Shown here one piece after another: positions 4,177 to 63,462 of a DNA stretch of 64,000 nucleotides. The position numbers and the translations under genes were made by a program. The stretch is taken from NCBI GenBank assembly GCA_035468355.1, contig DATITA010000012.1, forward strand, positions 15,228 through 79,227, given 5' to 3'. The stretch is from Candidatus Dormiibacterota bacterium. GTDB lineage: Bacteria > Chloroflexota > Dormibacteria > Dormibacterales > Dormibacteraceae. The first letter of the stretch is position 1. Each line of letters begins with the position of its first letter. The notes below the pieces were generated by a model. That model had not been told where the DNA came from. It saw only the letters and a list, made by a program, of their open reading frames with translations, and did no database searches.

Positions 4177-4234
4177 GACACGTAAGTGTACGGAGGCCCG
4201 GTTCACGACCGGAACCTCTAGAGTTCGGCCGGTG

Positions 4235-16855: not shown

Positions 16856-16880
16856 GCCTCGCGGGTTGGGGTGGGCGGCG

Positions 16881-17645: not shown

Positions 17646-17711
17646 CGATTCCCAACACCGACCGAGCTCCGCGACGGTCGTTCCATGCCCGCAGCCGAGT
17701 ATAGGCGTGGC

Positions 17712-17740
17712 TTTACATCTCTAAACTCGATTGGTAATCC
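17712..17740 (+). promoter_or_regulatory. weak promoter candidate in the divergent region between paralogs B and C
   Basis: TTTACA, a 17-nt spacer, then TAATCC, within a locally AT-richer stretch. Confidence 0.25.
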
Positions 17741-17791
17741 GTGTCAGGCGGGCGTTTCCGGTCGGCTGCGCCGTGGGAAAGATGAGGAGCC

Positions 17792-31277: not shown

Positions 31278-31281
31278 CCTT

Positions 31282-31824
31282 TTGATCGCAGCGGTCGGAG
31301 CTTTTCTTGGCTGGTTGGGCGTCTCGACCATCGTGCTCGCCGATGGGCGCCGCGGGCTTGCCGCCGGGCTCGCCGTCGCGACCGCCGGCCTCGCTGCCAT
31401 TGCGTGGCAGAACGGCGATGGCGTGGCCGCCGTGATCGTTTTGATCGGCGGCGGCGCGGCGGCGGTGCTGCGCTACCGTGCGGGTCCAGGCGGCTGGGCT
31501 ATGATGCCGCCCGGTTCCACGCCGCGCCTGATCATGTGCGTGGCGGGAGGCCTCGTCGCATTGTGGTTCGCGGCTTCGGTGACCACCGGCTCCGGCGGCG
31601 CGACTCGCTTCGCGGTGTTGAGCGTCATCGGGTTGAGCGGTGCTCGGATCGTGTCTAGCCGCGAGCCTTCGAGCGTGGTGACCGCCGTGGCCGTTCTTGC
31701 TCTCTCCGCCGCTATCGCCACTCACCTCGGGGCCGGCTCTCCCGGCCTCTGGCCCTACGTCGCGGCCGCCTTGGTCGCCGCTGCAGCGCCGCTGGTACCG
31801 GTGCGGGTCGCCAATGCCTCCTGA
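31282..31824 (+). CDS. small polytopic membrane protein (about 5 TM; a NuoJ-like role is speculative)
   Basis: I infer a TTG start at 31282, 5 nt after the upstream stop. 180 aa, Ala/Gly/Val-rich helices. Confidence 0.4.
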   Translation: MIAAVGAFLGWLGVSTIVLADGRRGLAAGLAVATAGLAAIAWQNGDGVAAVIVLIGGGAAAVLRYRAGPGGWAMMPPGSTPRLIMCVAGGLVALWFAASVTTGSGGATRFAVLSVIGLSGARIVSSREPSSVVTAVAVLALSAAIATHLGAGSPGLWPYVAAALVAAAAPLVPVRVANAS

Positions 31825-32866
31825 CGTGGCCACGTGCCTGCCCCTGCTAATCGCCGCGGCGGCGGCCCTGGGACTCGCGGTCGCGATGTCGCCTCCGCGA
31901 GTATCCAGGACCGCGCTCCTGGCGAGAGGGGGAACCGGGCTCGCCGGCATGGTGGCCATCGCCTTGGCGCCGAGCCTCGACCTCCTGGTGTTGGCGCTCC
32001 TGGTCCTGGCGGTGCTTCACGCCTCGCTTCCGGGAAAACGCGACTTCGCATCACGACTTCAGATGCCGGTCGTCGCCGTGGTCCTGATCGCCGTGGCGCT
32101 CCTGTTCGCTCGGGTGCAGGGCCCCGAGATGCTGCAGAGGTTCGCGGCCGTCGGGCTCGCCGCCGGCGTCGCCGCATGTGTGGGATTGCTGCCGTACATC
32201 CACGTCCTCGAACCCGAGGACATGGTGGTCGTGTCGCCCACGGCGTGGATCGGGTTCGTAGGGCCGGTCGCCGCGACTGCGATTCTGATCAAGGTGCGCG
32301 GGCTGCTGTCCCAGGATGCGGGCACCGACCTGGGGGCGATGCTCATAGCGCTGGGCCTGGTCAACATGCTGTGGGGCACGCTCGCGGCATGGAGGGCCGA
32401 GGACTCGACGCGCGCATGGCACTACTCCTTCATGGCGGATTGGGGACTGGCGCTGTGCGGTTTCGGCCTGACCGTCACCGAGGGCCAGGGGGCAGCCTTG
32501 TTGATCCTGTCGAGCATCGTGTTCGGCAGGCTGCCGCTGTATCTCGCGTCGCGCCAGGCGCTCCGTGAGCACCAGTCGGCCGACCGCCCGATCAACCTCA
32601 TGGTGGCCGCCGTGCTGGCCGGGTCGGCCCCTTTCGCAGGTTTCGCAGCCAGGGTCTTGCTCCTGCGCGCGGCGACGCAGATGTACTGGCCGCTGGCCCT
32701 CGTGCTGGCGGCCGGCATGCTGCTGTGGCTCCCGGTGGCGCTCAGGCTCGGCCGCACGTTGGGCCAGCCTCGCGGGCGCCAGGCGCTCGGCGTGGGCATC
32801 GTGATCGCCGCCAACGCGGTGGTGGGCCTCTATCCCCTGCCGCTGCTCACCCTGGCCGGCCGATGA
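31814..32866 (+). CDS. polytopic membrane protein, degenerate antiporter-like (NuoN/MrpD-like) candidate
   Basis: The ATG at 31814 overlaps the upstream gene by 11 nt. LWGTLAAWRAEDSTRAWHYSFMADWGLALCGFGL parallels G-x-L-x-A-x-x-Q-x-D-x-KR-x-LAYSS-I-x-x-x-G. Confidence 0.5.
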   Translation: MPPDVATCLPLLIAAAAALGLAVAMSPPRVSRTALLARGGTGLAGMVAIALAPSLDLLVLALLVLAVLHASLPGKRDFASRLQMPVVAVVLIAVALLFARVQGPEMLQRFAAVGLAAGVAACVGLLPYIHVLEPEDMVVVSPTAWIGFVGPVAATAILIKVRGLLSQDAGTDLGAMLIALGLVNMLWGTLAAWRAEDSTRAWHYSFMADWGLALCGFGLTVTEGQGAALLILSSIVFGRLPLYLASRQALREHQSADRPINLMVAAVLAGSAPFAGFAARVLLLRAATQMYWPLALVLAAGMLLWLPVALRLGRTLGQPRGRQALGVGIVIAANAVVGLYPLPLLTLAGR

Positions 32867-33672
32867 TCCAGATCCTGTCGGCCCTCGGCGCGCACTCCCT
32901 GGCGCTGCTCGTTTATCCCGGCCTACTCACCCTGCTCGCTTTCGGCGGCCTGGTCGAGATCGCGTGGGGCAGGCTTGCTCATGGAGTCTGGAAGCTCTCC
33001 GAGGTGCCGCGCCGCAGGCCCACGCCTGTTGCCGCCACGGTCGCCATCTGTTCGGTACTCGCCGCGGTCCAGCTGGCGGCGCCCTACAACCCCGTGCCGA
33101 CCGAGGAGCGCAGCGTGGTGATCGCCGCCATCGCGCTCGCTTTCACGGTCTGGGCTGAGCTTGCGCTGACCGTTGAGCACGTCCCTGAGCCCAGCATCCT
33201 GCTCGTCGTCGAGTTCTGCTGGCTGCTCGCGGTCTTGGGCCCGGCGGTGCAGCCGGAAAGCCTTCGACCGCAGGTGTTGGGAAACGTGCTGGTGCCGGCG
33301 CTTCTCCCGGTGAAGGTGGCGAGCGGGCTTCTCTATCTTCTTTGCCTGCCCGCGCTGCTCCGCGTCTGGCCATTTTCACCACCGGCCGACCGGCGAAGCA
33401 GGCAGCGGTTCGACCTCGCGAGAGCGCTGTCCTGGTTCTCGTACTGCGGGCTTTTCACGACACTATTCGTCCCGCCTGCGGCTGCCGGACTGCCGGCGCT
33501 GTTGCGGTTTTTCGGGATCACCTTCGGGGTGGCGGCCCTGATGGTGGTGGGGGGTCTCGTGATGGACCGGCGCGGGCCGACGCTCGCGCGAGGCCTGTAC
33601 ACGCGCGCCATGCCGCCCTTCGCCCTGTTGGTGCTGCTGCTGGTGATCGGGACCTCGTTCATCGTCCGCTGA
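32863..33672 (+). CDS. polytopic membrane protein (weak NuoH/HycD-like resemblance)
   Basis: ATGA overlap with the upstream gene. 269 aa and about 8 TM helices. The family resemblance is weak and rests on pattern only. Confidence 0.35.
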   Translation: MIQILSALGAHSLALLVYPGLLTLLAFGGLVEIAWGRLAHGVWKLSEVPRRRPTPVAATVAICSVLAAVQLAAPYNPVPTEERSVVIAAIALAFTVWAELALTVEHVPEPSILLVVEFCWLLAVLGPAVQPESLRPQVLGNVLVPALLPVKVASGLLYLLCLPALLRVWPFSPPADRRSRQRFDLARALSWFSYCGLFTTLFVPPAAAGLPALLRFFGITFGVAALMVVGGLVMDRRGPTLARGLYTRAMPPFALLVLLLVIGTSFIVR

Positions 33673-42656: not shown

Positions 42657-43541
42657 CTATCTGACGGTCTTCAGGATCTGGATGATGGCCGGGCCAAGGA
42701 GCACGATCCACAGGACTGGGAAGATGCAGCCCACCATGGGAAAAACCATCCGGGAGGATGCCTGGGCGGCGCGCTCTTGCGCGGTCTGGCGCTGGCGCCG
42801 GCGCATCTCGGTCGCCTGGACCCTCAGCAATCGAGCGATCGGCACTCCCATCTGGTCGGACTGGACGATGGATTCGACCAGGTGATGAAGGTCGGCGACG
42901 CCCGTCGCGTCGGCCATGTGCTCAAGCGCCGCCATGCGTGGCCGGCCCAACCTGATCTCGCGCAACACTTTGCCGATCTCGTCGCCCAGCGCGTTGTGGA
43001 AACGCTCGGTGATGCTGAGCAGGCCTTCGTCGAGGCTCATGCCCGACTCGACCACCAGGGTCAGAAGATCGGTCGCCTCGGCCAGCGAACGCCTGATCTG
43101 GGCCCGCCGCCGGGCTATCTGCTGCTCGAGCCACAGGTTGGGCGCAAAGTAGCCGACCGCGGCGAGGACCAGCCCTGAGACCGGGGCCATCAAAAGGACC
43201 GGCAAAGGGCTGGGGATGAGCAGCCCGCCGCCAAGGCCGGCGATGGCAAGGAGCGCCGCCAGGCTGTAGCGAACTGCCTGGAATCCCGCCGGGGTCAACC
43301 CCCCCGGGTCGCCGGCCCGGCTCAGCTTCTGGCGCAGGAGTCCCGCCGACCGAGGCGTCAGCCGCGTGGCGAACGGCCGCACCATGGACTCGAGCTGCTT
43401 GACCAAGCCGCGCCGCGGGGGGGTCACGAGGAACCCTCCGTCGGTGGCCGCCGCCGTGCGCCGCATCTGGTCGATGGCCACGAAGTAACCGGCGACGATG
43501 ACCCCGCAGATGACGCCCGCCGCAAGCGCGATCGGCAGCAT
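42657..43541 (-). CDS. tadC: Tad pilus platform protein TadC (T2SSF family)
   Basis: T2SSF core (LPEA-like LAEATDLLTLVVESGMSLDEGL ... QSDQMGVPIARLLRVQA) flanked by TM helices. Confidence 0.8.
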   Translation of the reverse strand: MLPIALAAGVICGVIVAGYFVAIDQMRRTAAATDGGFLVTPPRRGLVKQLESMVRPFATRLTPRSAGLLRQKLSRAGDPGGLTPAGFQAVRYSLAALLAIAGLGGGLLIPSPLPVLLMAPVSGLVLAAVGYFAPNLWLEQQIARRRAQIRRSLAEATDLLTLVVESGMSLDEGLLSITERFHNALGDEIGKVLREIRLGRPRMAALEHMADATGVADLHHLVESIVQSDQMGVPIARLLRVQATEMRRRQRQTAQERAAQASSRMVFPMVGCIFPVLWIVLLGPAIIQILKTVR

Positions 43542-44485
43542 CAGCTCTCCAGGGCGGTCATGCGCTGGATGATGACGTTGCCGATGAGGACCAGCAAGGC
43601 TGCCACCCCCAGCAGCACGTAACCCACGAAGGTCGTGGTCATGGGCGCGAAGTAGCCCGGCACGAAGATGTACAGGCCCAGGGCGAGCAGGATCGGCAGG
43701 CCCGTGATGATGGTCGCCGACGCGCGCGACTGCGCGGTGAGCACGCTCATGTCGCGTTTGGTCTGAAGGCGGTCGCGCAGGGTGTCCGAGATGGTGTCCA
43801 GCACTTCGGCCAGGTTGCCGCCGACCCGAACGTGGAGGAGGATCGCGGTAACGATGAACTCCAGGTCGGGGCTGTTGATGCGAAGCAGAAGCGCGCTGAG
43901 AGCGTCCTCGACGGACGTGCCAAGCGTGATCTCGGTGGTCACCCGCTCGAACTCGGTTGAGACCGGCGGCTGCGATTTGGCGGCCACAGTCTCGAGGGCG
44001 CGGTCGATGGCGTAGCCGGTCTTCAGCGAGTTGGACAGCAGCTGGAGCATGCTGCCGAGCTGGTCGTTGAACAGCGTCTGGCGCCGGCGCTGGAGAAAGC
44101 CGACGACCAGCGGCGGCACTATGAACCCCACCGCTCCCAGGATCACCGGCCCTGCCGATATGCCGAAGCGGAACAAACCGACGAGAGCGCCCAGGGCGAC
44201 CGCGCCGATGCGGATCAGCAGGTACTCGGACGGCGTGATGTTCAAGCCGGCTCGCGCGAGCTCTTCGGTCAGGGTCGGCTTGCCCTGCACCGTCCTGCGC
44301 TGGCTCAGGTTGTCGGCCGCCGGCCGCAGCAACCGTTCGACGAGCTCCCGGGGCGTCGCCCTCGGCGCCGTGGACGCGGGAGTCCGGGTGACGTGCTCTT
44401 TGCGCACCCGATCCAGGCTCCAGAAGAAGACGGCGATGGCCGCCGCCATGGGAACGGCGACGATGACTTGCGGCGGGAGGTTCAC
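43541..44485 (-). CDS. tadB: Tad pilus platform protein TadB (T2SSF family)
   Basis: FNDQLGSMLQLLSNSLKTGYAIDRAL...VRVGGNLAEVLDTISDTLR plus TM helices. Confidence 0.8.
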   Translation of the reverse strand: MNLPPQVIVAVPMAAAIAVFFWSLDRVRKEHVTRTPASTAPRATPRELVERLLRPAADNLSQRRTVQGKPTLTEELARAGLNITPSEYLLIRIGAVALGALVGLFRFGISAGPVILGAVGFIVPPLVVGFLQRRRQTLFNDQLGSMLQLLSNSLKTGYAIDRALETVAAKSQPPVSTEFERVTTEITLGTSVEDALSALLLRINSPDLEFIVTAILLHVRVGGNLAEVLDTISDTLRDRLQTKRDMSVLTAQSRASATIITGLPILLALGLYIFVPGYFAPMTTTFVGYVLLGVAALLVLIGNVIIQRMTALES

Positions 44486-44495
44486 CTTCGGCTGC

Positions 44496-45269
44496 CTAGA
44501 AAAGAGTCGGGTATGCGGCCTGGATGAGCTGTAGGGTGACGCCCTTAGCGGCCGCGACGGACGGGCACGTGGGGTCGGGGGTCTGGGCGCCGGGCTGTAG
44601 ATAGTCGTGGTACGACTCCAGCGCGTACTTCAGCGAGGCGTAGGTCAAAAACCAGGTGATGATCTCCGCCTGGCACTCCGAAACGACCACGGTGAGGCTG
44701 GTCGCGCTTGCGGCCCCGGCGCCCGACGAGGCTGCCCCAGGCCCCACCCGGATCACGTGCAGGTTGGTGAAGATCGTCTTGGATGCGACCTTGGGGCCGG
44801 TCGAAACCGTGGCGATGACGGAGATGTAGTCGTCCGGCTGGATGTAATTGGCCACGCCCTGCTGCTCGCTGGTCGGGATGGTGATCGCCACGTACCCCGA
44901 CGGGATCGGCAGGAACTCTGACTGCGAACCCAGGGCCTGGCTGGGCTTGGCCACCTCATTGGAGGTCACCGCCTGTCCGCTTGCGACCGGGACCAGCGGG
45001 ATCGTCCCGGCGACGTCCCGGATCTGGGTGAAGTAGATCTGAGGGTAATCGGCCGGGACGGGGATGGTCTTCAGAGCCAGCGATCCCGCTGCGATCGGGA
45101 TCCGTGGTGGCAGGCCGGTGGTCGTGACGACGACCGTCTTCTGGGGACTGCTGCCAGCCTGTTGGGCGTTGAGAGCTACGAGCACGAACGCCACGATCAC
45201 GAGAAGAGCGAGCACGATGCCCAGCAGGGTGAACGGCCTTCGTGACGTAAGGCCGGTCAAATTCCGCAC
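44496..45269 (-). CDS. cpaB: Flp pilus assembly protein CpaB/RcpC (SAF domain)
   Basis: N-terminal TM helix, then VVVTTTGLPPRIPIAAGSL...VASGQAVTSNEV and IPSGYVAITIP. Confidence 0.75.
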   Translation of the reverse strand: MRNLTGLTSRRPFTLLGIVLALLVIVAFVLVALNAQQAGSSPQKTVVVTTTGLPPRIPIAAGSLALKTIPVPADYPQIYFTQIRDVAGTIPLVPVASGQAVTSNEVAKPSQALGSQSEFLPIPSGYVAITIPTSEQQGVANYIQPDDYISVIATVSTGPKVASKTIFTNLHVIRVGPGAASSGAGAASATSLTVVVSECQAEIITWFLTYASLKYALESYHDYLQPGAQTPDPTCPSVAAAKGVTLQLIQAAYPTLF

Positions 45270-45298: not shown

Positions 45299-45880
45299 GT
45301 GCCGCGCCCCCCTTACCCGACCCACCGACCTCGCAAGGCGCTTCAGCATGGGCAATCCATGGTCGAGTTCGCGCTCTCGTCCGTGGTGCTTTTGCTGCTC
45401 GTGGGCGGCCTCGTGGACATCGGCCGGTCGGTCTTCATCAGCGAGGCTCTGTCGAATGCGGCCCGTGAAGGCGCACGCCATGGAGCCTGGTTCAGCGCCC
45501 CGACCCAGTCGCATCCATACCTAGACGACGCCCAGATCAAGGCGACCGTGGATTCCGAGCTGGCCACGATCTCGCTACCGGCGTCCGTGCTCAAGAACCC
45601 CACGACGACGTGTCCGGCGACCGCCGACGGCAATGCCTTTCACAACCCGCCGTTCGTGACCTCGGCCTACCCGGCCACGGCCAACCAGTCGTGGCTCTAC
45701 ATCTGCTACAACAACACGCCCGGCCTCGACTTCGCCAGCCCGGCGGCCAACCAGTCTCACCTCGACCTGAACGTGATCGTCCTGTACGACTACGGCCCGC
45801 TGACGCCGATCATCAGCAGCGATTTCGGCCTGTTCCGCCTCGCCGCCAACGAGCACATGACCGTGCAGGGCAGCGGATGA
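45299..45880 (+). CDS. TadE-like pseudopilin
   Basis: ...HGQSMVEFALSSVVLLLLVGGLVDIGRSVF (TadE N-terminal motif). Confidence 0.75.
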   Translation: MPRPPYPTHRPRKALQHGQSMVEFALSSVVLLLLVGGLVDIGRSVFISEALSNAAREGARHGAWFSAPTQSHPYLDDAQIKATVDSELATISLPASVLKNPTTTCPATADGNAFHNPPFVTSAYPATANQSWLYICYNNTPGLDFASPAANQSHLDLNVIVLYDYGPLTPIISSDFGLFRLAANEHMTVQGSG

Positions 45881-46416
45881 GTCGCTTTGGCGGCCAGCGC
45901 TCGCAGGCGCTGATCGAGTTCGCGCTCATCTCACCGGTCCTGCTGCTGCTCCTTTTTGGAATCGTGGACATCGGCCGCGCGGTCTTCTACTACGACACGC
46001 TGAACCACGCCGCGCGAGAGGGCGCCCGTACGGCGGTGCGCGCGTCCAACCAGCTGCCGACGAACACGGACGTGCTCGCCAGGGTCACGGCACAGTTGAT
46101 CGGCATCCCGGTCACCGAGCCCTGTCCACAAGGGCCGATCACATCGGCCACGCCTCCCGGCAACACGGCCTGGCTGTATGTGACCGAGCCGAACCCACCC
46201 CCCACGGTCGAGACGGCGCCACCGGACAATGCCCCGGGAGGCGAGAATGTCGCCTCGGCGAGTGGATCCTGCAGCGCGGTCAACCCTGCGGGAGGCAATG
46301 CGCAGCTCCAGGTCACCCTGCGCTTCAACCTAGTCCTGATCACGCCGGTGGTCGCCCAGGCGACGGCCGACCACATCGTGATCACCGCCGCTGCGATCTT
46401 CCGGACGGAGTACTGA
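45877..46416 (+). CDS. TadE-like pseudopilin (second copy)
   Basis: MSRFGGQRSQALIEFALISPVLLLLLFGIVDIGRAVF. ATGA overlap with the upstream gene. Confidence 0.75.
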   Translation: MSRFGGQRSQALIEFALISPVLLLLLFGIVDIGRAVFYYDTLNHAAREGARTAVRASNQLPTNTDVLARVTAQLIGIPVTEPCPQGPITSATPPGNTAWLYVTEPNPPPTVETAPPDNAPGGENVASASGSCSAVNPAGGNAQLQVTLRFNLVLITPVVAQATADHIVITAAAIFRTEY

Positions 46417-46422
46417 GGGACG

Positions 46423-48401
46423 ATGCGAGCTTCATGCCGGCGTCGCTTTGAGAGCGGACAGGCGATAGTGCTGATCGCCATCATGCTGGCGGTCGTCGTC
46501 GGGATGGCGGCTCTCGCGATCGACGGCTCGCGCGCATATTCCATGCGGCGCGACCTCCAGGCGGCGGTGGATGCCGCGGCGCTGGCGGCGGCGGACAACC
46601 TGCAGCAAACGGGCAGCTACACGTCGGCCGAGCAGGCGGCATCCACCATCTTCGGCATCGACGCGCGCTTCTATGGGGCGCCGTCGTGCTCCCCGGGGTA
46701 TGGGTCGCCAGGCGCATCGCCCTTCACCGTGACCTGCACCTATTCGGACGGGACCACGCTGACGGACGTCGTCTCCAACCTGGGTTCGCAAGGCGCGCAG
46801 TTCAGCTTCACCGCGGCACACTCGCTCGCGCTTCAGTTCGCCCGCATCCTGATGAGCGGGACGCCGCCCAAGATCGTCGCCACCTCCTCCGGCGGGGTGG
46901 ACAACCTCCTTTACACCCCGGCCGTCGGCGCCCTGGCCAGTGCTGGTTGTGGCGGGACAGGTGGCAGCGCCGTGACGGTCAACGGCTTCGGGACCGCCAG
47001 CATGGTGGGTGACCTGGTTTCCAATGGCGCCATATCGGTGGCCGGCGGCAGCCTGCGCGTCGCCGGCGACATCTATGCACGATGTCAGGCCTCCGTCCCC
47101 GGGTCGTCGACGGCTTGCTTTCCAAGCGGGCTGGCCGCCCCGTGCACGTTCCCTGACGTTAACGGAGCCGTTCGTTCCGGCTACCAGCTGGGCGATCCGA
47201 ACTTTCCGGCGCCAGCGGTTACCGGCGGCAGCCGGGGAGCACCGGGAAGCACCGTGGTGCTCCAGGCCGGGTCATATGCTGCCAATCCCGGTTTCAGCGG
47301 AGGGCACTGCTGGTTTCTAAGCGGTGGCGTCTACCAGTGGCAGTCCGGCTACACGAACAGTCGGGACTTCGTGAGTAACGAGCTGAAGCCCCCTGACGAA
47401 CCGGCAACCACAAACGTCCGTCAGGTCTCCGCTCACCAGTTCTGGAACACGAACGGCGTCCAGTGCGCCGGGTCGGTCCTGGTGAGCGGCGTCGGCGGAC
47501 CGAACACCCTCGACAAGGGCAACTTGGGTGTGGTGCTGACCTCCGTGCGCACGGACTCCTACGGTGGCGCCACCTACCGCCGTGAGAGCGCGCCGTCGGC
47601 GTGCCAGGCAGTCCATATCAAGGTAGGCGAGGTGCTCCAGGTCCAGGTGAGCAACGTGCCCGGCGCGACTTCCTACAACGTGTATGCCAGCGACGTTGCG
47701 AACGGCTGCAAGGGACCATGGGGCTGGGCGGGCTCCATCCCGGTGGTCGGTACGGTGTCGAACAGCAACACCAACCCGTGCCCAACGTTCAGCGGCAACG
47801 GGTGCAGCCTGGGCCATGAGACGGCTCTGTTCGACAGCACTCAATTGCCCGACGTTTTTGCCCCCAACCCGTTGGCTGCGCTGGACACGTACGAGGCATA
47901 CCCACCAGATTCGGAGACCGCGCCGTTGAGCAGCACGCTGCCCAATCAGAATCCGCCGCGCGGAACCGGCGCCACCGGCGATCGCGCCAACGAGAACAAC
48001 TGCGAGACGACGACTGCAGCGTATTCAACGTGTCCCGACGCGGTCACCCCTGGCGCCGTCGAGTTCTATGTCCCAAATGGCGGCTGCCTGTCGACGACGA
48101 ACAGCGGCGACACGTATATGTTCAGCGGCTACCAGTACAACTGGCTGTCCGTTTTCGAACCTGGCGCCGGCTCGCCTCCCGCCAACACTTGCACGAACAC
48201 GCTTGGCGCCAGCGGGTTTTCGGCGTACGTGGGGCTCGTTTACGTGCCGTCGGCCGTCGTGGCCATAACCTCGGCGTACGCCTTCGAGGCAGCGGCGACC
48301 GGGGGATTGCTGGCCAGCTCGGTCACCTTCACCGGAGCTCTACCAACAATCACGTACAGCTCCAGTTACGGGCCGGTGCCGCCGGCCGCCCGCCTGACCG
48401 G

Positions 48402-48405
<4 letters not shown>
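46423..48405 (+). CDS. TadG-like large pilus-associated protein
   Basis: The N-terminus ESGQAIVLIAIMLAVVVGMAALAIDGSRAY...DAAALAAA matches the Tad_N/TadG motif. It is followed by about 560 aa of Gly/Ser/Thr/Cys-rich, presumably extracellular, sequence. Confidence 0.7.
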
Positions 48406-53288
<4,883 letters not shown>

Positions 53289-53348
53289 CGAATTCCAGCC
53301 CCGAGCGATGCTAGCACCGCGCCGCCCTCCGCCTGGTTAAGAGCACGA

Positions 53349-54353
53349 TCAACTCCCGAACCGCTCCGGCGGGCGCCGACGGTCGAGCACCCACTTTGAT
53401 CCCGGCATTCGTTTGGCCACCCCCTTGACCTCTGCCGCGCGCGCGGCCACTGCGGCTGCGCTCGCGTAGGCACCTGGCTCGGCGACCACGATTCCGATCG
53501 ACACCGAGACCATCGGGATGCGCAGCGTGTTCCCGTTCCGCTCCTGCATCTCGATCCATCCACGCTCGCGGTCAGCGGGGTCGTAAAGCGCGGGCACCGC
53601 CGCGTCGAAGCGCTTGGTGATCTCGGTCGCGATCACCTCCGCCAGGCTCGGCTCGGTCAGGATGACGAAGTCATCACCGCCGACGTGACCGGCGAAATGG
53701 CTGCTCGAGTAATTCTCCTCGAGGACCTCGAAGATGATGGTCGCGAGCGTCTTGATGACGTCGTCTCCGCGCAGGAACCCGTAGTGGTCGTTGTAGCTCT
53801 TGAACGAGTCGATGTCGGGATACAGCACGGCGAACCGGTCGCGGTGCCCGAGGCGGCGGCTGATCTCCCTGAGGATGTCGCTGTTGCCGCTCATGCCGGT
53901 GAGCGGGCTGAGCTCGCGCGCGGAGGTCGACCGGCTCATGACCGCGCGCAAGCGGGCCACCAGCTCCTCGGGGATGAACGGCTTGGTCACGTAATCGTCG
54001 GCGCCCGCGAGCAGGTGCTCCACCTTGTCCTTCAAGGATCCCCGCACGGTGAGGAAGACGACCGGTATCAGCCGGGTGCGGAAGTCGGCGCGCAGCTCGG
54101 CGAGGATCTGGTCGCCCGTGATGTCCCCGAGCATGAGGTCGAGAAGGATGATGTCGGGGCGCCATTCGGCGGCAGCGGTGTGAGCGGCATGCCCGTCGCC
54201 GACCGTGACACTCTCGAAGCCGGCACGGTCGAGCACGCGCTTGACCAGCCTTAGGACCTGCTCGTCGTCATCGATGACCAGCACGATCTCGCGGTGACCG
54301 AGCGCGGAGCGGGGACTCTCCTTGTCAGCTCCGACCCCTCTGGCCACGGTCAT
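53349..54353 (-). CDS. response regulator: receiver domain + GGDEF-type domain with a GGDDF motif
   Basis: REC motifs VLVIDDD, ILLDLMLGD and KPF. GGDEF-like motifs PLTGMSGN, YPDIDSFKSYNDHYGFLRGDDVI and HVGGDDFVIL. Confidence 0.8.
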   Translation of the reverse strand: MTVARGVGADKESPRSALGHREIVLVIDDDEQVLRLVKRVLDRAGFESVTVGDGHAAHTAAAEWRPDIILLDLMLGDITGDQILAELRADFRTRLIPVVFLTVRGSLKDKVEHLLAGADDYVTKPFIPEELVARLRAVMSRSTSARELSPLTGMSGNSDILREISRRLGHRDRFAVLYPDIDSFKSYNDHYGFLRGDDVIKTLATIIFEVLEENYSSSHFAGHVGGDDFVILTEPSLAEVIATEITKRFDAAVPALYDPADRERGWIEMQERNGNTLRIPMVSVSIGIVVAEPGAYASAAAVAARAAEVKGVAKRMPGSKWVLDRRRPPERFGS

Positions 54354-54592
54354 GTCCTGGCGTCCGGCGGCGTTGGCTGGGATACACGCGTCAAGCCGCG
54401 AAGCTTGTCGGTAAGGGCGATGGCGCGTTCGGCGGCCGTGCGGACCTCGGCGATGTCGGCGCGGACCGCTTCGGGATCGCCCGTCTCTTCCGCGATCAGC
54501 TCGCTGTAGTTGACGATGACGGCGAGCAGGTTGCGAAAGTCGTGGATCAAGACGCGCGTCTCGTCGTCCGGGGCTTTCGAGGTTTCCGCCAT
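54350..54592 (-). CDS. stand-alone histidine-kinase DHp (HisKA-like) domain protein with no ATPase domain
   Basis: H-box LIHDFRNLLAVIVNYSELI followed by a second helix. About 80 aa from the ATG at 54592 (the ORF track starts at 54634). Its stop overlaps the REC-GGDDF start (ATGA). Confidence 0.6.
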   Translation of the reverse strand: MAETSKAPDDETRVLIHDFRNLLAVIVNYSELIAEETGDPEAVRADIAEVRTAAERAIALTDKLRGLTRVSQPTPPDART

Positions 54593-54609
54593 CGGTGAGG
54601 GGTCCTGCG

Positions 54610-55029
54610 TCACAGTCTCTTCACCAGGCGCCACCGGTTGAGCTGGCCGTCGCGTTGATACCCGAGCTCGTCCAGCAGCGAGCGCGCGAGAGCAAGACCG
54701 CGCCCGTCCTCGCTCTCGAGCCCGGGCATGGCGCGAGCCAGGTGTTCGTGCACCGGCGGTCCGGGATCCACGAATGATGCGAGCAGCGTGCCCCGGTCCA
54801 GTTGAAGCTGGTATTCGACCGGGTCCGCGGCCTCCTCGGGACGCCCGTGGGTGAGCACGTTGGCGCCGATCTCCCCGAGTGCCGTCTCGAACAGCATGAG
54901 AGGGCGGTCGTCCGGCGGCCGGCCGGTAGCCCGACGGAGCAGCTCCACAGAGTGGTGCAGCACGTCCAATCCCTGGTCGAGCGCGGTGAGAGTAGCGCGG
55001 AACTCAAAGGGCTCCTGTGTGGGTCCCAA
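54610..55029 (-). CDS. RsbW/SpoIIAB-like anti-sigma serine kinase (HATPase_c_2)
   Basis: ALGEIGANVLTHG (N-box-like) and DGRGLALARSLLDELGY. 139 aa, directly after the STAS gene. Confidence 0.65.
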   Translation of the reverse strand: MGPTQEPFEFRATLTALDQGLDVLHHSVELLRRATGRPPDDRPLMLFETALGEIGANVLTHGRPEEAADPVEYQLQLDRGTLLASFVDPGPPVHEHLARAMPGLESEDGRGLALARSLLDELGYQRDGQLNRWRLVKRL

Positions 55030-55031
55030 GC

Positions 55032-55397
55032 TCAGAAGCCAGTAAGGGCTTCCTCGACAGTGGCGTAGTAGGGGAACACGCGGTCGAGGGTGGTCAGCTC
55101 GAGCACCACCCGAACCTGCTGGTTGGGGGCCGCGAGACGGAGCTCGCCCTGGCTGCCTTTGATCTGTTTGAGCGCGGAGATCACGGAGCCGAGCCCCGTG
55201 CTGTCGACGAAGCTGACTCCTTCCATGTCGATCACGACGCGTGGGAGTCCGTGCTTGACCAGCTCGCTGATCGCGTCTTTCAAGGCCGGCGCGCCCACGA
55301 CGTCAAGCCGTCCGGTGGGGGCGACCACCGTGATTCCGTTGTCAGCCGATCGGGTCTGAACGTCGAGGCTCAGCTTGGGGCTCCCATGGGGACCCAC
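55032..55397 (-). CDS. STAS-domain anti-sigma-factor antagonist (RsbV/SpoIIAA-like)
   Basis: GRLDVVGAPALKDAI...VVIDMEGVSFVDSTGLGSVISAL...LRLAAPNQQVRVVLELT. Confidence 0.8.
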   Translation of the reverse strand: MGPHGSPKLSLDVQTRSADNGITVVAPTGRLDVVGAPALKDAISELVKHGLPRVVIDMEGVSFVDSTGLGSVISALKQIKGSQGELRLAAPNQQVRVVLELTTLDRVFPYYATVEEALTGF

Positions 55398-55447
55398 AGA
55401 GTCTATGGCAGACGGTCGGGAATTTAGCCTGTCTACACTGCAGAAGC

Positions 55448-56567
55448 GTGCTGGAACCCGTGAGCTCGCGGCGCATCTTGGTCGTGGACGACGAGGAACC
55501 CCTCGCCAAGGTGATGGCGCGCACGCTCCGAAGCCGGGGATTCGAGTGCGATATCGCGCTGGACGGGGCCCAGGCCAGGCAGTTGTTCGAGAAGCAGGAC
55601 TATGCCCTCGCGCTGCTGGACGTGCGCCTCCCCGACGAATCCGGCTACGGGCTCCTCGAAGAGCTGCGGGCCAGGAGCCCGGACACCGCCGTGGTGATGA
55701 TCTCGGGGGTCGACGACCCCGAGCTCGGCCGGGCTGCCATGGAGCACGGGGCCTACGCGTACCACGTCAAGCCCGTCGGTGCGACGCAGCTCTATCTGCT
55801 GGTCGAGAACAACCTGCGCCGCAGGAGCCTCGAGATCGATGGCCGCGCGACCATGCGGCGGCTCGAATCGATGGTCGAAGAGCGCTCGGAGCAGGTGCGG
55901 CGGGCGGCCAGGCTTCAGACCGGCATGCTGCCTGCCTCTCCTTATGTGGGAGAAGGTTTCGAGCTGGCGGCCCACTTCAGCGCAGCCAAGGAGATCAGCG
56001 GCGATTTCTACGATTGGCACCACGCACTGGACGACCGGCTGACGATCACGCTGGGCGACGTGATGGGAAAGGGGCTGCCTGCGGCCCTGATGATGGCCAC
56101 GGCGCGCGCGGCCCTTCGAGGCGCTGCCGGCATCCATCCGATGGAGGCCGGTATCAAGCAGGCGGCCGAGGTGATGGCCGCCGCACTCGAGGTCGAGCAC
56201 GCGTACGTCACCGTCTTCCATTCATCGTTCGACCCGCGATCAGGCGATCTGCGCTATGTCGACGCCGGCCACGGGCACGCGCGCATCCTGCGAGCCGTGG
56301 GGGGCCAGGAGCTGCTGCCGGAGCGCAGCGCGCCGATCGGAATCTTCCCGGACACCCAGTATCTCGTCGGCACCGCGACCCTTCGACCTGGCGACACCCT
56401 GGTCGTCTTCTCCGACGGCCTGCTGGACCTGCGTCCCGACCTCGCCACCGCCGACGTGCTGCTGCCCTACGAAGCGCGACGGGCGAGCACCGCCCAGCAG
56501 ATGGTCGACATACTTGCCAACGGAGCCCCGACCCGCGAGCTCTTCGACGACGTCACCATCGTCGCCC

Positions 56568-56581
<14 letters not shown>
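55448..56581 (+). CDS. response regulator fused to a PP2C (SpoIIE/RsbU-type) phosphatase
   Basis: REC motifs [17 protein letters not shown] and KPV. PPM motifs [26 protein letters not shown] and FSDGL. Confidence 0.85.
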
Positions 56582-58949
<2,368 letters not shown>

Positions 58950-58992
58950 CCTGCGCACCTTCCATCCCGCCAGGGGGGGCGAGGTTTCAGAG

Positions 58993-61389
58993 GTGTTGCC
59001 AGAACCCGACGCGCCTGTCGCGCCATGGAGCCGGGGGCTGGTACGTCGAATCACACCCTTTGCAGCCATCGCCGCCATCTTCGCCATGCAGGCCCTGTCG
59101 GACGCCAGCCCGGTGCTGGCGTTTCCGCTATACCTGGCCGTCGTCCTGCTCGCCGCCCTCCAGGCTGGGCGGTCCGAGTCGGTCGCGGCCGCCACCCTGG
59201 CGGCGATCGCAATCCTGATCCGCCCGCTCGTGACCGGCGCCCACGCGTCGGACCTGGCGCCCGCCATGCTGCTCGCCGCCGTGCTGGTGGTGGTCACGGT
59301 GGCGGTCGGCGAGGCCGCCCGGCAGGCGCGCCAGACCGCGGTCGAGGCTCAGCGCGCGGCCGCGCGCACGGCGGCGGCGGAGCAGCGGGTCCGCACCATG
59401 CTCGAGGCGGCGATGGTGGGGCTCGCCCTCACCGACCTCGACGGAAGATGGACCCAGGTCAACGAGCAGCTGAGCCGCATCCTCGGCCGCAACCGCGATG
59501 ACATCCTCCACACGGCATTGGGAGCCGTCACAGCGGAAAGCGACCGCCTGGTGATCGATGATGCGCTCGCGCTTCTTCGCTCGGGCGACATCGTGCACTG
59601 GGAAGGCGAGCTGACGCACGTCCGGCCCGACGGGACTTTGGTTCCGGTCGCAGTCGCCATCGCCAAGCCGTCTCCAGACGCCCAATGGCTGGTGGTCCAG
59701 GAGACGGATATCTCCGAGCGCCGGCGAGTGGAGCTCCTCCGCGACTGCCTGGTCGCCGTCCAGCAAACGATCCTCGACTCGGCGAGCTGGGACCAGGCCC
59801 TCCCTGTCCTGCTCGCCAGCCTGTGCTCGCATCTCAACTGGGACGTGGGGATTTACTGGGTGGTCGAATCCGAGCGCAAGGCGCTGCGGGTGAAGCACAC
59901 GTGGCGCTCCAATGACGCCGAGCTCGACCGGTTCGTCGAGGAGGGCCGCGCCCTTGGGGTGACCGCAGAGGCGGGCCTTCTGAGCAGGGTGTGGCAGTCG
60001 GGGGTCGTCGGCGCCGAGATGAACCTCGAGCAGGCGCAGGATTACGAGCGGGTGGAAGCCGCCCGCCGGGCGGAGCTGCGCGCCGCCCTTGCGCTGCCGG
60101 TCGTCGACGCCGGCTGCGTGATCGGCGTGATCGAGCTGCTGGGCCGGCGCTCCAGAAGCCTGCGCGATGACGAGGTGATGGCCATGGCGACGGTCGGCCT
60201 GGAAGTCGGCCAGTTCATCCGCCGCAGCGACACAGCCCAGGCTCTGCGCCGGAGCGAGGCCGACCACCGCGCCATCTACGAGCGCTCGCCCATCGGCATC
60301 GCCCGCATCAGCGCGGAGGGGGAGCTGTTGGAGGCCAACGTCGCGCTGCTCGGTATGGTCGAGCACGATTTCGAGACGATGCGGTCCGGCGCCTGGCCGG
60401 ATCTGCTTCGGGCGTACGACCAGGCTGCTTCGCGCCACCGCGCCGCCCCCCTGCTGGCCGGGATCACCGACGGCGGCAGCGTCCAGGTCAGGGCGGTGAC
60501 CGCGAGCGGAAAGTGGCTGTGGCTGCAGCTGACCGCGACCTCCATCCCGGACGCCAGCGGGAGGCCCGAGCACGTCCTGGTCATGGTCGAAGACGTCACC
60601 ACGGTGCGCGACACCTCGGACAAGCTGGCCGAGGCGCTGGAGTCCCAGCGCAGCGCCAACGCCAACCTCGAGAAGCTCGACCGGACCAAGACCGAGTTCC
60701 TCAGCATCGTGAGCCACGAGTTCCGAACCGCGCTGACCGGCATCCAGGGCTTCAGCGAGCTCATCCGTGACGGGGGCCTGGAACCCGACGAGCTCCGGGC
60801 CTACGGCGGATACATATTCAATGACGCGGACCGGGTCAACCGGCTCATCGGCGACATGCTGGACCTTGACCGGATGGAGTCAGGCCGCATGAGCATGCGG
60901 AGCGGCGCGGTCGACATCAACGAGGTCTTGAGCGAAGCGATGGCGCGAGCGGTGACGGCCGCTTCCACCGTCGAGTTCAAGGCCGACCTCGACCCGAGGC
61001 TTCCGATCGTCTCCGGCGACCGCGACCGCCTGATCCAGGTGGTCAGCAACCTGGTCAACAACGCGATCAAGTACTCGCCCGACGGCGGTACGGTGTCCCT
61101 GTCGAGCAGGGCGGAGGGCGGTTTCGCCCTCGTCAGCATCTCGGACACCGGTTTGGGCATCCCCCCAGACGAGATCGGGCACGTGTTCGAGCGTTTCCGG
61201 CGCGTGCGCAGCGGCGCCGCCCAATCAATTCCCGGGACTGGCCTGGGCCTCACGATCGTTAAGCAGATCGTGGAGATGCACGGGGGCAAGATCTGGGTGG
61301 AGTCGGCGGTCGGGCATGGGTCGGCCTTTCACTTCACCGTCCCCATGGCCGTGGAGAACACGAGCCCCAGGCAGCTCCTCCGTGCCTGA
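58993..61389 (+). CDS. sensor histidine kinase (TM region, PAS, GAF, PAS, HisKA, HATPase)
   Basis: [36 protein letters not shown] and [13 protein letters not shown]-like block ...[12 protein letters not shown] infer a GTG start at 58993, after GAGG. Confidence 0.8.
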
Positions 61390-61804
61390 TGCCGGCCTGG
61401 GTGGGGCGGACGGTCAAGCGGGGGCGGGCGTCCCGGGCCTGTTCACGGTCCTGGTCGCCGACGACAACGACGTCGCCCAGCGCCTTTGCAAGCGAGTGCT
61501 CGAAAAGGCGGGGTACACGGTGCTGATTGCGGCTGACGGCCTCCAGGCGGTGGACATCGCGCTCAAGCAGCGCCCGGCGATGATCCTCATGGACGTCGCC
61601 ATGCCCGGCATCGACGGCCTCGAGGCGATGCGCCGGATCAAGCAGGAAATGCCCACCATCCCGATCGTCATCGCCAGCGCCCACTCGATGGCGAGCGACC
61701 GCGAGAGGTTTCTCACGGCGGGGGCCGACGACGTGCTGAGCAAGCCATTCCGGCTCGCTGACCTCGTCGCCATCGTGGCCAAGCTCTCCGGCGCGCCGAA
61801 GTGA
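61316..61804 (+). CDS. single-domain response regulator
   Basis: VLVADDND, ILMDVAMPGIDG and SKPF. The only canonical start in frame is the ATG at 61316, which lies 74 nt inside the upstream kinase gene. Confidence 0.75.
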   Translation: MGRPFTSPSPWPWRTRAPGSSSVPDAGLGGADGQAGAGVPGLFTVLVADDNDVAQRLCKRVLEKAGYTVLIAADGLQAVDIALKQRPAMILMDVAMPGIDGLEAMRRIKQEMPTIPIVIASAHSMASDRERFLTAGADDVLSKPFRLADLVAIVAKLSGAPK

Positions 61805-63462
61805 AAGACCTCACCGGGACGAGGCTGGGGTCCTACGAGATCGTCGAACGACTCGGGGGCGGCGGCATGGCCGTGGTCTATCGCGCCGTCCAGCAGCCTC
61901 TCGGCCGCGAGGTCGCGTTGAAAGCTCTGTCGTCGGAGCTGTTCCAGGACGAGGGCTTCGTCAAGCGGTTCGAGACCGAGGCCAAGACGCTCGCCAAGCT
62001 GGACCATCCCAACATCCTTCCGATCTACGACTTCGAGGTCACCGAGGGCGTCGCGTTCCTGACCATGCCCCTGATCCGCGGCGGGACGCTGCGCGACATC
62101 CTGAATCGAGGCCCGCTCGACCCGTTGACCGCGTGGCGATACCTACGGGAGACCGGGGACGGCCTGCAGCATGCGCACGACGCCGGCATCGTCCACCGCG
62201 ACCTCAAGCCGACCAACGTGCTCATCCACTCGGACGGTCGCGCCATGCTCGCAGACTTCGGCCTGGCGCGCGGCGCCGGGCAGCCGACCCACCTCACCAC
62301 GATCGGCCTTGCGATTGGGACGCCGGGTTACATGGCCCCCGAGCAGGTGATGGGCCACGACGTCGACAGGCGTGCCGACATATATGCGATGGGCGTCTTG
62401 ACCTTCGAGATGCTGACGGGCCGCCTGCCTTACATCGGCGCCAACCGCATGGAGGTCGCCTACGCGACGGTAAACTCACCGATTCCTTCGGCTGTGAAGC
62501 TGAACGCCGCCTTGCCCGACGAGCTCGACCAGCTCTTGGCCAGAGTGCTGGCCAAGGATCCGGCCCAGCGGCCGCAGACCGTGCGCGACCTGCTGGCGCA
62601 GATGGCCAAGCTTCCTCAGCGGCGGATGGCGCCGGTGGCGGCTGTCGCCCCCGTGCCTGCGGGGACCGCGGCCGGCGCCGGCGGGGTCGCCGTAATGCCC
62701 AGGCCTTCTCCCGGGCCCCAGGGCCCTGACACCACATCGATGCGCGCCGTCCCGGCGGGGATCCTTCACGGCTCGCCTCCGCCCACGCCGACGACGACCG
62801 CCGGCTCGGCGATCAGGACCCTGGAGCTCATGGGCGTGAAGCCGGCGCGCGCGAGGGGCCGCTTCATCCTGAACTCACACGTCAGCAACATCGTCCACGT
62901 CGCACGCGACATCGCCGGAGACCGCTGGCCCGAGGTCGCGTACGCCGCGGGCCTGGTGCAATACGTGGAGCAGGATCCGCCGCACGACGACCAGCTCTCG
63001 TCGCCAGTCGAGTCGTTGAGCCGTCTGAACGAGGCCTTCGAGACGATCTACGGACCGGAAGCCGAGGACATGATCCGGGCCTGGGGCCGGCGCGCCACGG
63101 AGCGCTGGCTGGCGGAGGGCAGGCACGGCATGGGCGGCCCGAGGCGGTTGGTGCCGGGACGGCAGCGCAAGCTGTCGGGGGTGGTCAAGAACTTCTCCGA
63201 GGCCATGGACAACGTCCGTGGCGAGCACACGCATGCGTGGCTCCAGGTCGACGAGCACCAGTTCTGGTTGGTCAACTTTTCGAACATGTTCGCGCTCGGC
63301 CGGATCAAGACGGTCAAGTCGTGCCATATGTGGACCTCGACTGTCGAAACCATCCTTCGCTGGGCCGGCCTCGCCAACGATTGGTACGTGGAAGAGGTCG
63401 AATGTGGTTGTGTGACGGGGACGTTCGATTGCGTCTTCGCCATTCGCTCCGTGGAGAGCTGA
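61801..63462 (+). CDS. Ser/Thr protein kinase fused to a C-terminal V4R-like domain
   Basis: GGGGMAVVY, ALK, HRDLKPTNVL, DFGLA and GTPGYMAPE. After a Pro-rich linker, the C-terminus ...CHMWTSTVETILRWAGL...VEEVECGCVTGTFDCVFAI is typical of 4-vinyl-reductase (V4R) domains. Confidence 0.8.
   Translation: MKDLTGTRLGSYEIVERLGGGGMAVVYRAVQQPLGREVALKALSSELFQDEGFVKRFETEAKTLAKLDHPNILPIYDFEVTEGVAFLTMPLIRGGTLRDILNRGPLDPLTAWRYLRETGDGLQHAHDAGIVHRDLKPTNVLIHSDGRAMLADFGLARGAGQPTHLTTIGLAIGTPGYMAPEQVMGHDVDRRADIYAMGVLTFEMLTGRLPYIGANRMEVAYATVNSPIPSAVKLNAALPDELDQLLARVLAKDPAQRPQTVRDLLAQMAKLPQRRMAPVAAVAPVPAGTAAGAGGVAVMPRPSPGPQGPDTTSMRAVPAGILHGSPPPTPTTTAGSAIRTLELMGVKPARARGRFILNSHVSNIVHVARDIAGDRWPEVAYAAGLVQYVEQDPPHDDQLSSPVESLSRLNEAFETIYGPEAEDMIRAWGRRATERWLAEGRHGMGGPRRLVPGRQRKLSGVVKNFSEAMDNVRGEHTHAWLQVDEHQFWLVNFSNMFALGRIKTVKSCHMWTSTVETILRWAGLANDWYVEEVECGCVTGTFDCVFAIRSVES

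Follow-up and report, generated by a model that had tools for sequence, protein, structure and literature searches.

A conserved block of predicted partner-switching and phosphorelay genes beside a Tad pilus motor-cyclase fusion gene in Candidatus Dormibacterota

Genes of the block and their conservation

Here we describe a block of four signaling genes on the minus strand (positions 53349-55397) of a 64-kb stretch of Candidatus Dormibacterota DNA (the window), together with the gene that follows it. In the order of reading, the block encodes a STAS antagonist, a serine kinase-like protein of the RsbW/SpoIIAB fold (here, the kinase), a stand-alone dimerization and histidine phosphotransfer (DHp) protein, and a response regulator that joins a receiver (REC) domain to a GGDEF-family domain with the signature GGDDF (REC-GGDDF). 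The gene that follows encodes a fusion of a CpaF-type Tad pilus motor and a cyclase, and the gene for a REC-PP2C phosphatase is divergent from the block. A first-pass annotation, made from the sequence alone, had assigned all six proteins in this way, and Pfam agreed with every one of these domain calls (Table 1). The four signaling genes and the fusion gene are present as open reading frames (ORFs) on the minus strand, with coding-type GC at third codon positions (GC3) of 0.80 to 0.89 for the five and 0.80 to 0.88 across the signaling four.

Relatives were collected by a scan of one genome per species, which gave 80 loci, and these loci were then probed with the window proteins by tblastn; gene order was counted in the 55 loci that have at least 2.3 kb upstream of the fusion start. 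We found the STAS, kinase, DHp, REC-GGDDF, and fusion genes on one strand and in the same order in all 55, with the REC-PP2C gene divergent from the block in each. This is the conservation in related genomes that the first-pass annotation had put forward as a check on its proposal. Median identity to the window proteins was 80% for STAS, 64% for the kinase, 75% for DHp, 81% for REC-GGDDF, 76% for the fusion, and 73% for REC-PP2C, and protein identity over the conserved loci ranged from 54 to 97%. The independent NCBI annotation of one assembly (locus L084) gives the same genes with the same overlaps. Recurring in 55 of 55 loci and in independent gene calls, the five-gene arrangement is far beyond chance.

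The fusion protein has at least 120 full-length orthologue clusters. Its full-length relatives (73 to 91% identity, about 1600 to 1660 aa) come from Candidatus Dormibacterota assemblies, a few of them binned under other names. We did not find the module outside Dormibacterota in two large protein searches, which were filled by Dormibacterota orthologues, and the closest outgroup kinases (36 to 46% identity) occur in other gene contexts. As far as could be seen, the system is restricted to one uncultured phylum. We found no description of the arrangement in the literature.

The STAS protein scored 82 bits against the NCBIfam model ant_ant_sig (cut-off, 53), and its PDB matches are the anti-sigma-factor antagonists RsfB, SpoIIAA, and RsbV. 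Its phosphorylatable serine, Ser66, lies within a DSTGLG motif (55188-55205), and F63-V64-D65-S66 and G68-L69-G70 are invariant across 59 orthologues. The kinase has an N box (E53 and N57), a G1 box (D88-x-G90), and a G2 box (G109-R-G111-L), with box residues that are invariant in 18 orthologues. Compared with solved structures, the kinase sequence alone gave no match and its profile gave marginal ones. We therefore rely on its AlphaFold2 (AF2) model (pLDDT, 86.6), for which Foldseek returned SpoIIAB (TM score, 0.72 to 0.76), RsbW, and UsfX as the best PDB folds. The top matches had TM scores of 0.6 to 0.76, whereas the catalytic ATPase (CA) domains of histidine kinases reached only about 0.5.

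A search of 1.84 billion representative proteins returned relatives of the kinase (36 to 46% identity) that are mostly stand-alone proteins of about 140 aa. Those that are fused bear STAS, SpoIIE, or REC-SpoIIE domains, and HisKA is never among them. One outgroup kinase gene lies 4 kb from a Tad locus (L083), which we treat as anecdotal. In two other outgroup loci, the RsbW-like gene is followed by a conserved ORF of 72 to 76 aa with an acidic tail (L081, 4192-4422; L082, 6820-7038). This small ORF has no Pfam match and is not DHp-like, and no STAS gene is adjacent to it. It may encode another non-sigma partner of this kinase family.

The REC-PP2C phosphatase has a conserved phospho-acceptor aspartate in LLDVRLPD and all of the metal-binding motifs (GDFYD, GDVMGKG, FSDGL, and FDDVT), which are kept in 58 orthologues. 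Its best NCBIfam resemblance is to Pseudomonas RssB, at a score under the cut-off of that model. Judged by domains, motifs, and fold, the STAS protein, the RsbW-fold kinase, and the PP2C phosphatase are predicted to form a complete partner-switch triad without a sigma factor. In agreement with the first-pass annotation, which had noted no sigma factor near the block, we found no sigma-factor domain in any GC3-supported ORF of the window or in ten further long ORFs. The target of the switch could be a sigma factor whose gene lies outside the window. At the operon position usual for the sigma factor, directly after the kinase gene, lies the gene for the DHp-only protein, and this is the most original feature of the locus.

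The DHp protein is 87 to 94 aa long, depending on the start chosen; in independent gene calls, it has 67 aa and matches HisKA weakly. It is a bare helical hairpin with a core of about 55 residues and no catalytic ATPase (HATPase) domain; lacking that domain in the same polypeptide, it is not a classical histidine kinase. Its histidine box, HDFRN, lies at 54530-54544, and the His, Arg, and Asn are invariant in 63 orthologues. In HisKA kinases, this form of the box is associated with phosphotransfer and phosphatase activity. Its NCBIfam matches are weak and cover the DHp regions of histidine kinases, CckA among them. The DHp profile returned nothing useful from solved structures, with no sequence match to Spo0B or ChpT, and the Hpt fold (PF01627) had no match in either this protein or the nearby hybrid kinase.

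REC-GGDDF has a conserved phospho-acceptor aspartate in ILLDLM (54132-54149). Its GGDDF motif (53667-53681) is invariant in 65 orthologues, the fourth residue always being Asp. When aligned with WspR, DgcR, and other PDB proteins, REC-GGDDF keeps the metal-binding Asp, the Asn, and the Gly-Asp guanine contacts, and it differs from the PDB GGDEF proteins in having D rather than E as the fourth motif residue. It also retains the SIG and AK..G signatures near the C terminus, and we found no RxxD inhibitory site. Synthesis of cyclic di-GMP (c-di-GMP) by REC-GGDDF, with its noncanonical motif, is plausible (PMC8835794).

Table 1. Features of the signaling block, the fusion gene, and their surroundings in the window
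Feature	Position	Strand	Basis
STAS antagonist, 121 aa	55032-55397	-	Pfam STAS, E 8e-22
RsbW/SpoIIAB-fold serine kinase-like protein, 139 aa	54610-55029	-	Pfam HATPase_c_2 (the RsbW and SpoIIAB family), E 2.8e-14
Stand-alone DHp (HisKA-only) protein	54350-54613 (GTG 54613 start)	-	Pfam HisKA, E 2.2e-6, 28.0 bits (cut-off, 26.9)
REC-GGDDF response regulator, 334 aa	53349-54353	-	Pfam Response_reg, E 1.3e-23; GGDEF, E 3.2e-15
Intergenic element GTGCTAGCAT	53308-53317	-	Aligned across about 47 species
CpaF-cyclase fusion, 1628 aa	48402-53288	-	Pfam T2SSE, E 1e-67; Guanylate_cyc, E 2e-23; AAA_16, E 3e-24
Divergent control region, 50 nt, between STAS and REC-PP2C genes	55398-55447		Locus alignment
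REC-PP2C (SpoIIE-family) phosphatase, 377 aa	55448-56581	+	Pfam SpoIIE, E 1.9e-34; Response_reg, E 2.3e-22
Hybrid histidine kinase (membrane region, HisKA, HATPase_c, two REC)	56568-58949 (start approximate)	-	Pfam
PAS-GAF-PAS histidine kinase	58834-61389	+	Pfam, synteny
Single-domain REC	61316-61804	+	Pfam, synteny
Ser/Thr protein kinase	61801-63462	+	Pfam, synteny
TadC	42657-43541	-	Pfam
TadB	43541-44485	-	Pfam
CpaB/RcpC	44496-45269	-	Pfam
Two TadE-like genes	45299-45880 and ~45880-46416	+	Pfam
TadG-like gene	46423-48405	+	Pfam

Gene spacing and the region before the fusion gene

The gap between the STAS and kinase genes is 2 nt in the window (55030-55031) and 2 to 4 nt across loci. The DHp and REC-GGDDF genes overlap by ATGA at 54350-54353, and the overlap is 4 nt in 48 of 54 loci. 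At the junction of the kinase and DHp genes, we found an overlap of 4 nt in 40 of 55 loci and of 25 nt in 12 more. The DHp gene of the window has alternative starts at 54634 (GTG), 54613 (GTG), and 54592 (ATG). If translation starts at the in-frame GTG at 54613, the DHp gene and the kinase stop codon overlap by GTGA, and most relatives are arranged in this way. Thus, the junctions listed in the first-pass annotation hold for the 2-nt gap, the ATGA overlap, and the 60-nt gap between the REC-GGDDF and fusion genes (53289-53348), but its 17-nt gap at 54593-54609 exists only if the DHp protein starts at the ATG at 54592. Genes that are translationally coupled typically show the spacing seen in these first four.

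Between the REC-GGDDF and fusion genes, a gap of 52 to 136 nt is present in about 47 loci, the window included. Within it, GTGCTAGCAT is kept amid otherwise variable flanking sequence. From the end of the element to the fusion start codon, the distance is 19 nt in the window and 16 to 106 nt across loci. The exact 9-mer TGCTAGCAT occurs once per locus, at this position only, and once in the window. Because the variants of the element (TATCAT, TAGCCT, and TGATAGCAT) mostly retain T1, A2, and T6 of a -10 hexamer, GTGCTAGCAT can be read as an extended -10 promoter (TGnTAnnnT). The core of the element, TGCTAGCA, is a palindrome, and for this reason the element is possibly an operator. In one clade (L003-L010, L037, L048, and L072), the leader from the element to the start is 38 to 107 nt long and has a conserved stretch, CCGTGAGGCCAAC.GCCGTGAAC, which matches no Rfam family.

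Twelve loci have neither the gap nor the element, and here the end of the REC-GGDDF gene and the start of the fusion gene share 1 or 4 nt. These loci are scattered in a neighbor-joining tree of REC-GGDDF proteins, and therefore the change between gap and overlap occurred more than once. The start/stop overlap in 12 species argues for a real functional link between the REC-GGDDF and fusion genes. We concluded that the fusion gene belongs functionally with the signaling block. A promoter-like element that was repeatedly replaced by gene overlap is a natural experiment on how tightly the gene for a regulator is coupled to that for its presumed target.

A scan of positions 48000-57000 found no consensus sigma-70 promoter, although this consensus is uninformative for the phylum, and it found no terminator-like site between the REC-GGDDF and fusion genes, with the same limit on what the scan can tell. 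Rfam returned nothing at gathering scores in the window, nothing at E values up to 1 in 53000-55700, and nothing in six related loci. A riboswitch or other known RNA in the gene gaps was rejected, as there was no Rfam match. Conservation extends to the 50 nt that separate the divergent STAS and REC-PP2C genes, with the blocks GTGTAGA(C/G)A and GGCTnAA, then about 17 nt, and then TAnnnT. In L013, L015, L060, L063, and L074, this region carries an insertion of about 300 nt that starts with a duplicated GTGTAGG-like block.

Candidate targets of the switch

We give about even chances to the following reading: the locus encodes a conserved Dormibacterota signaling unit of two interlocked parts, a sigma-less partner switch and a His-Asp branch, which acts via REC-GGDDF on the Tad motor. 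In the first part, REC-PP2C and the RsbW-fold kinase would set the phosphorylation of Ser66 of the STAS protein. The second part would be a His-Asp branch without its own ATPase domain, in which the DHp gene is coupled to the kinase gene upstream and to the REC-GGDDF gene downstream. The PAS-GAF kinase, the hybrid kinase, or both would phosphorylate the REC domains, and the DHp protein could act as a Spo0B/ChpT-like phosphotransferase or as a phosphatase. Phosphorylated REC-PP2C would then dephosphorylate STAS. The STAS/kinase pair would modulate REC-GGDDF, as SiaC does SiaD and as HsbA does HsbD. Lastly, REC-GGDDF would act on the motor/adenylate cyclase fusion, either through c-di-GMP or by direct contact. 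We infer each of these phosphorylation, binding, and output steps from the genes, domains, motifs, kinase fold, gene order, spacing, and conservation described above.

According to this reading, REC-GGDDF and not the pilus motor is most likely the direct output of the switch. This is suggested by analogy, because published sigma-less switches act on co-encoded or nearby diguanylate cyclases, as in SiaABCD, HsbA-HsbD, BgrV-BgrR, and MtT-MtG (PMC7647112, PMC6482189). The step from REC-GGDDF to the fusion is the weakest link, because the fusion has no c-di-GMP receptor signature.

Several findings weigh against the two-part unit. GGDDF departs from the canonical GG(D/E)EF active site, and a GGDDF protein without cyclase activity, PA3258, has been described (PMC8835794). 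The G1 box of the kinase reads DPGPP, not DxGxG, and is partly canonical (DxGPP). In the fusion protein, a regular-expression search found no MshEN or PilZ motif, and its N-terminal domain had no Pfam match and no Foldseek match below an E value of 0.03 in the PDB. Among the window ORFs, Pfam found no Flp pilin, no prepilin peptidase TadV, and no TadZ/CpaE. In this genome, the fusion gene probably has its own promoter in addition to that of the block, and the conserved promoter-like element therefore makes strict co-transcription doubtful. Finally, the entire region of about 22 kb from a MerR gene to the Ser/Thr kinase gene, housekeeping genes included, is syntenic in the sampled species. Adjacency is thus weak evidence, and the argument rests on gene spacing.

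The first-pass annotation had proposed that the block is co-transcribed with the fusion gene. The tight coupling of the first four genes and the overlap in 12 species agree with this proposal, but the promoter-like element before the fusion gene does not. It had also suggested a combined control circuit of Ser phosphorylation, His-Asp transfer, c-di-GMP, and cyclic nucleotides for a Tad pilus. The triad, the linkage, and the domains speak for such a circuit; the noncanonical GGDDF, the missing receptor motif, and the lack of Flp, TadV, and TadZ in the window speak against it.

The synteny of the 22-kb neighborhood would also be expected if the switch controlled a sigma factor or some other target elsewhere, its adjacency to the Tad genes then reflecting lineage synteny and not shared function. 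Bacteria often carry many orphan STAS/RsbW pairs, the closest outgroup kinases lie in other contexts, and the fusion gene has its own conserved promoter-like element, all of which fit this explanation. On the other hand, start/stop overlaps of the REC-GGDDF and fusion genes were gained or retained in several branches, and the first four genes remain tightly packed even where protein identity falls to 54%. We consider a target elsewhere to be unlikely.

A further possibility, which the first-pass annotation had favored, is that the fusion is the output of the RsbW-like protein and replaces the sigma factor. In this model, the RsbW-like protein would bind and inhibit the fusion until unphosphorylated STAS displaced the kinase. 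The absence of a sigma factor from the 64 kb is consistent with this, as is the place of the fusion gene, which comes next downstream of the block in 55 of 55 species and overlaps it in 12. The conserved N-terminal domain and the repeat tail of the fusion could dock a partner. However, two genes separate the kinase gene from the fusion gene, and the conserved promoter-like element stands between them in most species. No fused relative joins the kinase family to T2SSE or cyclase domains, and the characterized sigma-less switches work via STAS on a diguanylate cyclase (PMC7647112, PMC6482189). We found no specific support for the fusion as the partner and regard this model as improbable.

The position of the DHp gene raises the question of whether the DHp protein is itself the switched partner. 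The RsbW-like protein would then either sequester DHp or serve as its ATPase in trans, and STAS would release DHp and so gate phosphotransfer to REC-GGDDF. The order STAS, kinase, DHp places DHp where sigB or sigF lies after rsbV-rsbW or spoIIAA-spoIIAB, and the kinase and DHp genes overlap in most species. The DHp core is very conserved, with its invariant His and no ATPase domain of its own, and outgroup kinase genes also have a small, unrelated ORF next downstream. In histidine kinases, the ATPase domains of this superfamily dock on DHp helices. Against such a partnership, the kinase fold matches anti-sigma kinases and not histidine kinase CA domains, none of the fused kinase relatives contains HisKA, and the small ORFs after the outgroup kinase genes are not DHp-like. 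The fold match and the domain fusions weaken the idea of a split histidine kinase, with the kinase as the ATPase domain of DHp; sequestration is not affected by them. Overall, we think it rather unlikely that DHp is the partner.

We give an equally low chance to the full circuit that this would imply, in which the Ser phosphorylation switch directly gates the His-Asp relay: STAS would free the DHp dimer, DHp would set REC-GGDDF, and REC-GGDDF would control a pilus motor that makes cyclic AMP (cAMP). If true, this would be a new class of partner-switch output, in which a phosphotransfer protein replaces the sigma factor. It would also put four layers of control (Ser phosphorylation, His-Asp, c-di-GMP, and cAMP) on one machine.

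The GGDDF motif, noncanonical yet invariant, is compatible with a role for REC-GGDDF as a nonenzymatic adaptor, as FimX is for PilB. Such an adaptor would bind nucleotide or the ATPase, and REC phosphorylation would control motor recruitment. The Pfam GGDEF match spans only profile positions 21 to 116 of 161, and in 12 species, translational coupling joins the REC-GGDDF gene to that for the ATPase. FimX, which has REC and a degenerate GGDEF-EAL, binds PilB and promotes assembly (PMC11656802). In contrast, REC-GGDDF retains all substrate and metal contacts except motif position 4 as well as the SIG and AK..G signatures, and a GGDDF enzyme, GSU1937, has been reported to be active (PMC8835794). 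We consider an adaptor of this kind to be unlikely.

The fusion protein consists of a CpaF/TadA-type ATPase, a class III adenylate-type cyclase, an AAA_16 STAND module, and a helical repeat tail. The cyclase domain is nearest to the mycobacterial adenylate cyclases Ma1120 and Rv1900c and keeps the catalytic motifs. Before the CpaF core lies a highly conserved all-beta N-terminal domain (residues ~36-165; 52800-53180, minus strand). An AF2 model of residues 1 to 270 also shows an all-beta domain, with pLDDT values of 75 to 89 at residues 31 to 100. We rejected a c-di-GMP receptor in the fusion, as Foldseek matched the PilZ protein VCA0042 only at E values of 0.4 to 0.9, which is not receptor evidence. 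The P-loop of the STAND module (residues 1132-1139; 49872-49895, minus strand) has the sequence GAPGIGMS. Of 120 orthologues, 117 have A, T, S, or M in place of the Walker A lysine, and the pattern was unmatched in the other 3. Because this lysine is replaced, the STAND module probably does not bind or hydrolyze nucleotide in the usual way.

Of the Tad machinery, Pfam identified the CpaF/TadA ATPase, TadB, TadC, CpaB, and the TadE/TadG minor pilins, and every locus that extends far enough shows synteny of the Tad genes. Motif scans for the Flp pilin found only TadE-type leader sequences. Genes for Flp, TadV, and TadZ may be present outside the window.

On the other side of the block, the hybrid kinase gene is present in 35 of the 47 loci with enough flanking sequence. 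In the 12 that lack it, the REC-PP2C gene is followed on the same strand by those for the PAS-GAF kinase, the single REC, and the Ser/Thr kinase. This same-strand run suggests that the three genes belong to the same unit as REC-PP2C. For the hybrid kinase (56568-59297, minus strand) and the PAS-GAF kinase (58834-61389, plus strand), the longest ORFs share about 460 nt in head-to-head orientation; translation must in fact begin deeper inside each ORF, near 58949 for the former and after about 59000 for the latter.

Three other parts of the window drew our attention. At 15272-18631, three neighboring Peptidase_C39_2 genes lie beside polysaccharide-export-type and class A penicillin-binding protein genes. 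Three consecutive ORFs at 29619-33672 (552, 389, and 315 aa) have no Pfam match, the first encoding a polytopic membrane protein; this stretch has a GC content of 0.72 and a strongly negative AT skew. Two citrate synthase genes are found side by side at 1943-4317 on the minus strand.

Comparison with known systems

Candidatus Dormibacterota is an abundant soil and permafrost phylum. To our knowledge, it has no well-studied cultured member, and its cell biology is read from genomes. The locus gives a concrete, testable wiring diagram for how these bacteria may decide on the deployment of a Tad-type pilus. Partner switches with targets other than sigma factors are a growing class, to which the locus adds. 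Its DHp gene, placed where a sigma-factor gene would be, marks out a clear candidate for a switched partner of a new kind.

The same triad, kinase fold, and order of antagonist gene and then kinase gene are found in the RsbU/RsbV/RsbW-SigB and SpoIIE/SpoIIAA/SpoIIAB-SigF systems of Bacillus. There, however, the third gene encodes a sigma factor, whereas in the window it encodes the DHp-only protein. In RsbK-RsbY of B. cereus, a REC-PP2C is driven by a hybrid kinase, which resembles the window. Sigma-less switches with a REC-linked PP2C that act on surface structures have likewise been described in Vibrio fischeri (SypE-SypA) and in Anabaena (HenR/STAS) (PMC10120452, PMC13555669). The SypE domain set, HATPase_c_2-REC-SpoIIE, is found among the relatives of the window kinase. 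The two systems differ from the window, which has these domains on separate proteins, and their output is polysaccharide synthesis, whereas that of the window would be a GGDDF protein and a Tad motor.

Pilus ATPases are known to be under the control of c-di-GMP or of a REC-GGDEF-EAL protein (PMC11656802). In FimX-PilB and MshE, as would be the case here, a pilus extension ATPase is under a GGDEF-family protein or c-di-GMP (PMC11656802). Unlike these systems, the fusion has no MshEN motif and joins a CpaF-type ATPase to a cyclase and a STAND module, and REC-GGDDF has no EAL domain. For the DHp protein, the comparison is with Spo0B and ChpT, His-bearing four-helix bundles without kinase activity that could shuttle phosphate between REC domains. 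Both keep a degenerate ATPase-like domain, whereas the window protein has only a hairpin core of about 55 residues.

In 55 of 55 species, the phosphatase, kinase, switch protein, and GGDEF protein are encoded together within 3.3 kb, as in systems of the SiaABCD and HsbA-HsbD type. In Pseudomonas aeruginosa, the co-encoded PP2C SiaA, kinase SiaB, SiaC, and GGDEF protein SiaD form a sigma-less switch in which SiaC controls SiaD (PMC7647112). SiaC, whose structure resembles anti-sigma-factor antagonists, differs from the window STAS in being phosphorylated on Thr68 (PMC7647112). SiaA, unlike the window phosphatase, is a membrane protein without REC, and SiaD, unlike REC-GGDDF, also lacks REC. SiaD has a canonical GGDEF motif, and the SiaC family (DUF1987) is different from that of the window STAS. 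The SiaABCD operon has no DHp-only protein and no adjoining pilus ATPase or cyclase gene.

In the HptB-HsbR-HsbA-HsbD system of P. aeruginosa, hybrid kinases feed a phosphorelay that runs through a REC-PP2C to a STAS protein, whose state the REC-PP2C determines and which in turn binds a diguanylate cyclase; the outcome decides between motility and biofilm formation (PMC6482189). It differs from the window in several ways. The kinase domain of HsbR is on the same polypeptide as the REC-PP2C, HptB has the Hpt fold and not the DHp fold, and HsbA also acts via FlgM and RpoS, so that sigma factors are involved. The system has no link to a Tad locus. By analogy, we propose that the Dormibacterota unit works like the SiaABCD and HptB-HsbR-HsbA-HsbD circuits. 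What sets it apart from both is a REC domain on the phosphatase as well as on the GGDEF protein, a DHp-only protein in place of Hpt, an invariant GGDDF, a link to a CpaF-cyclase-STAND fusion gene, and an apparent restriction to one phylum.

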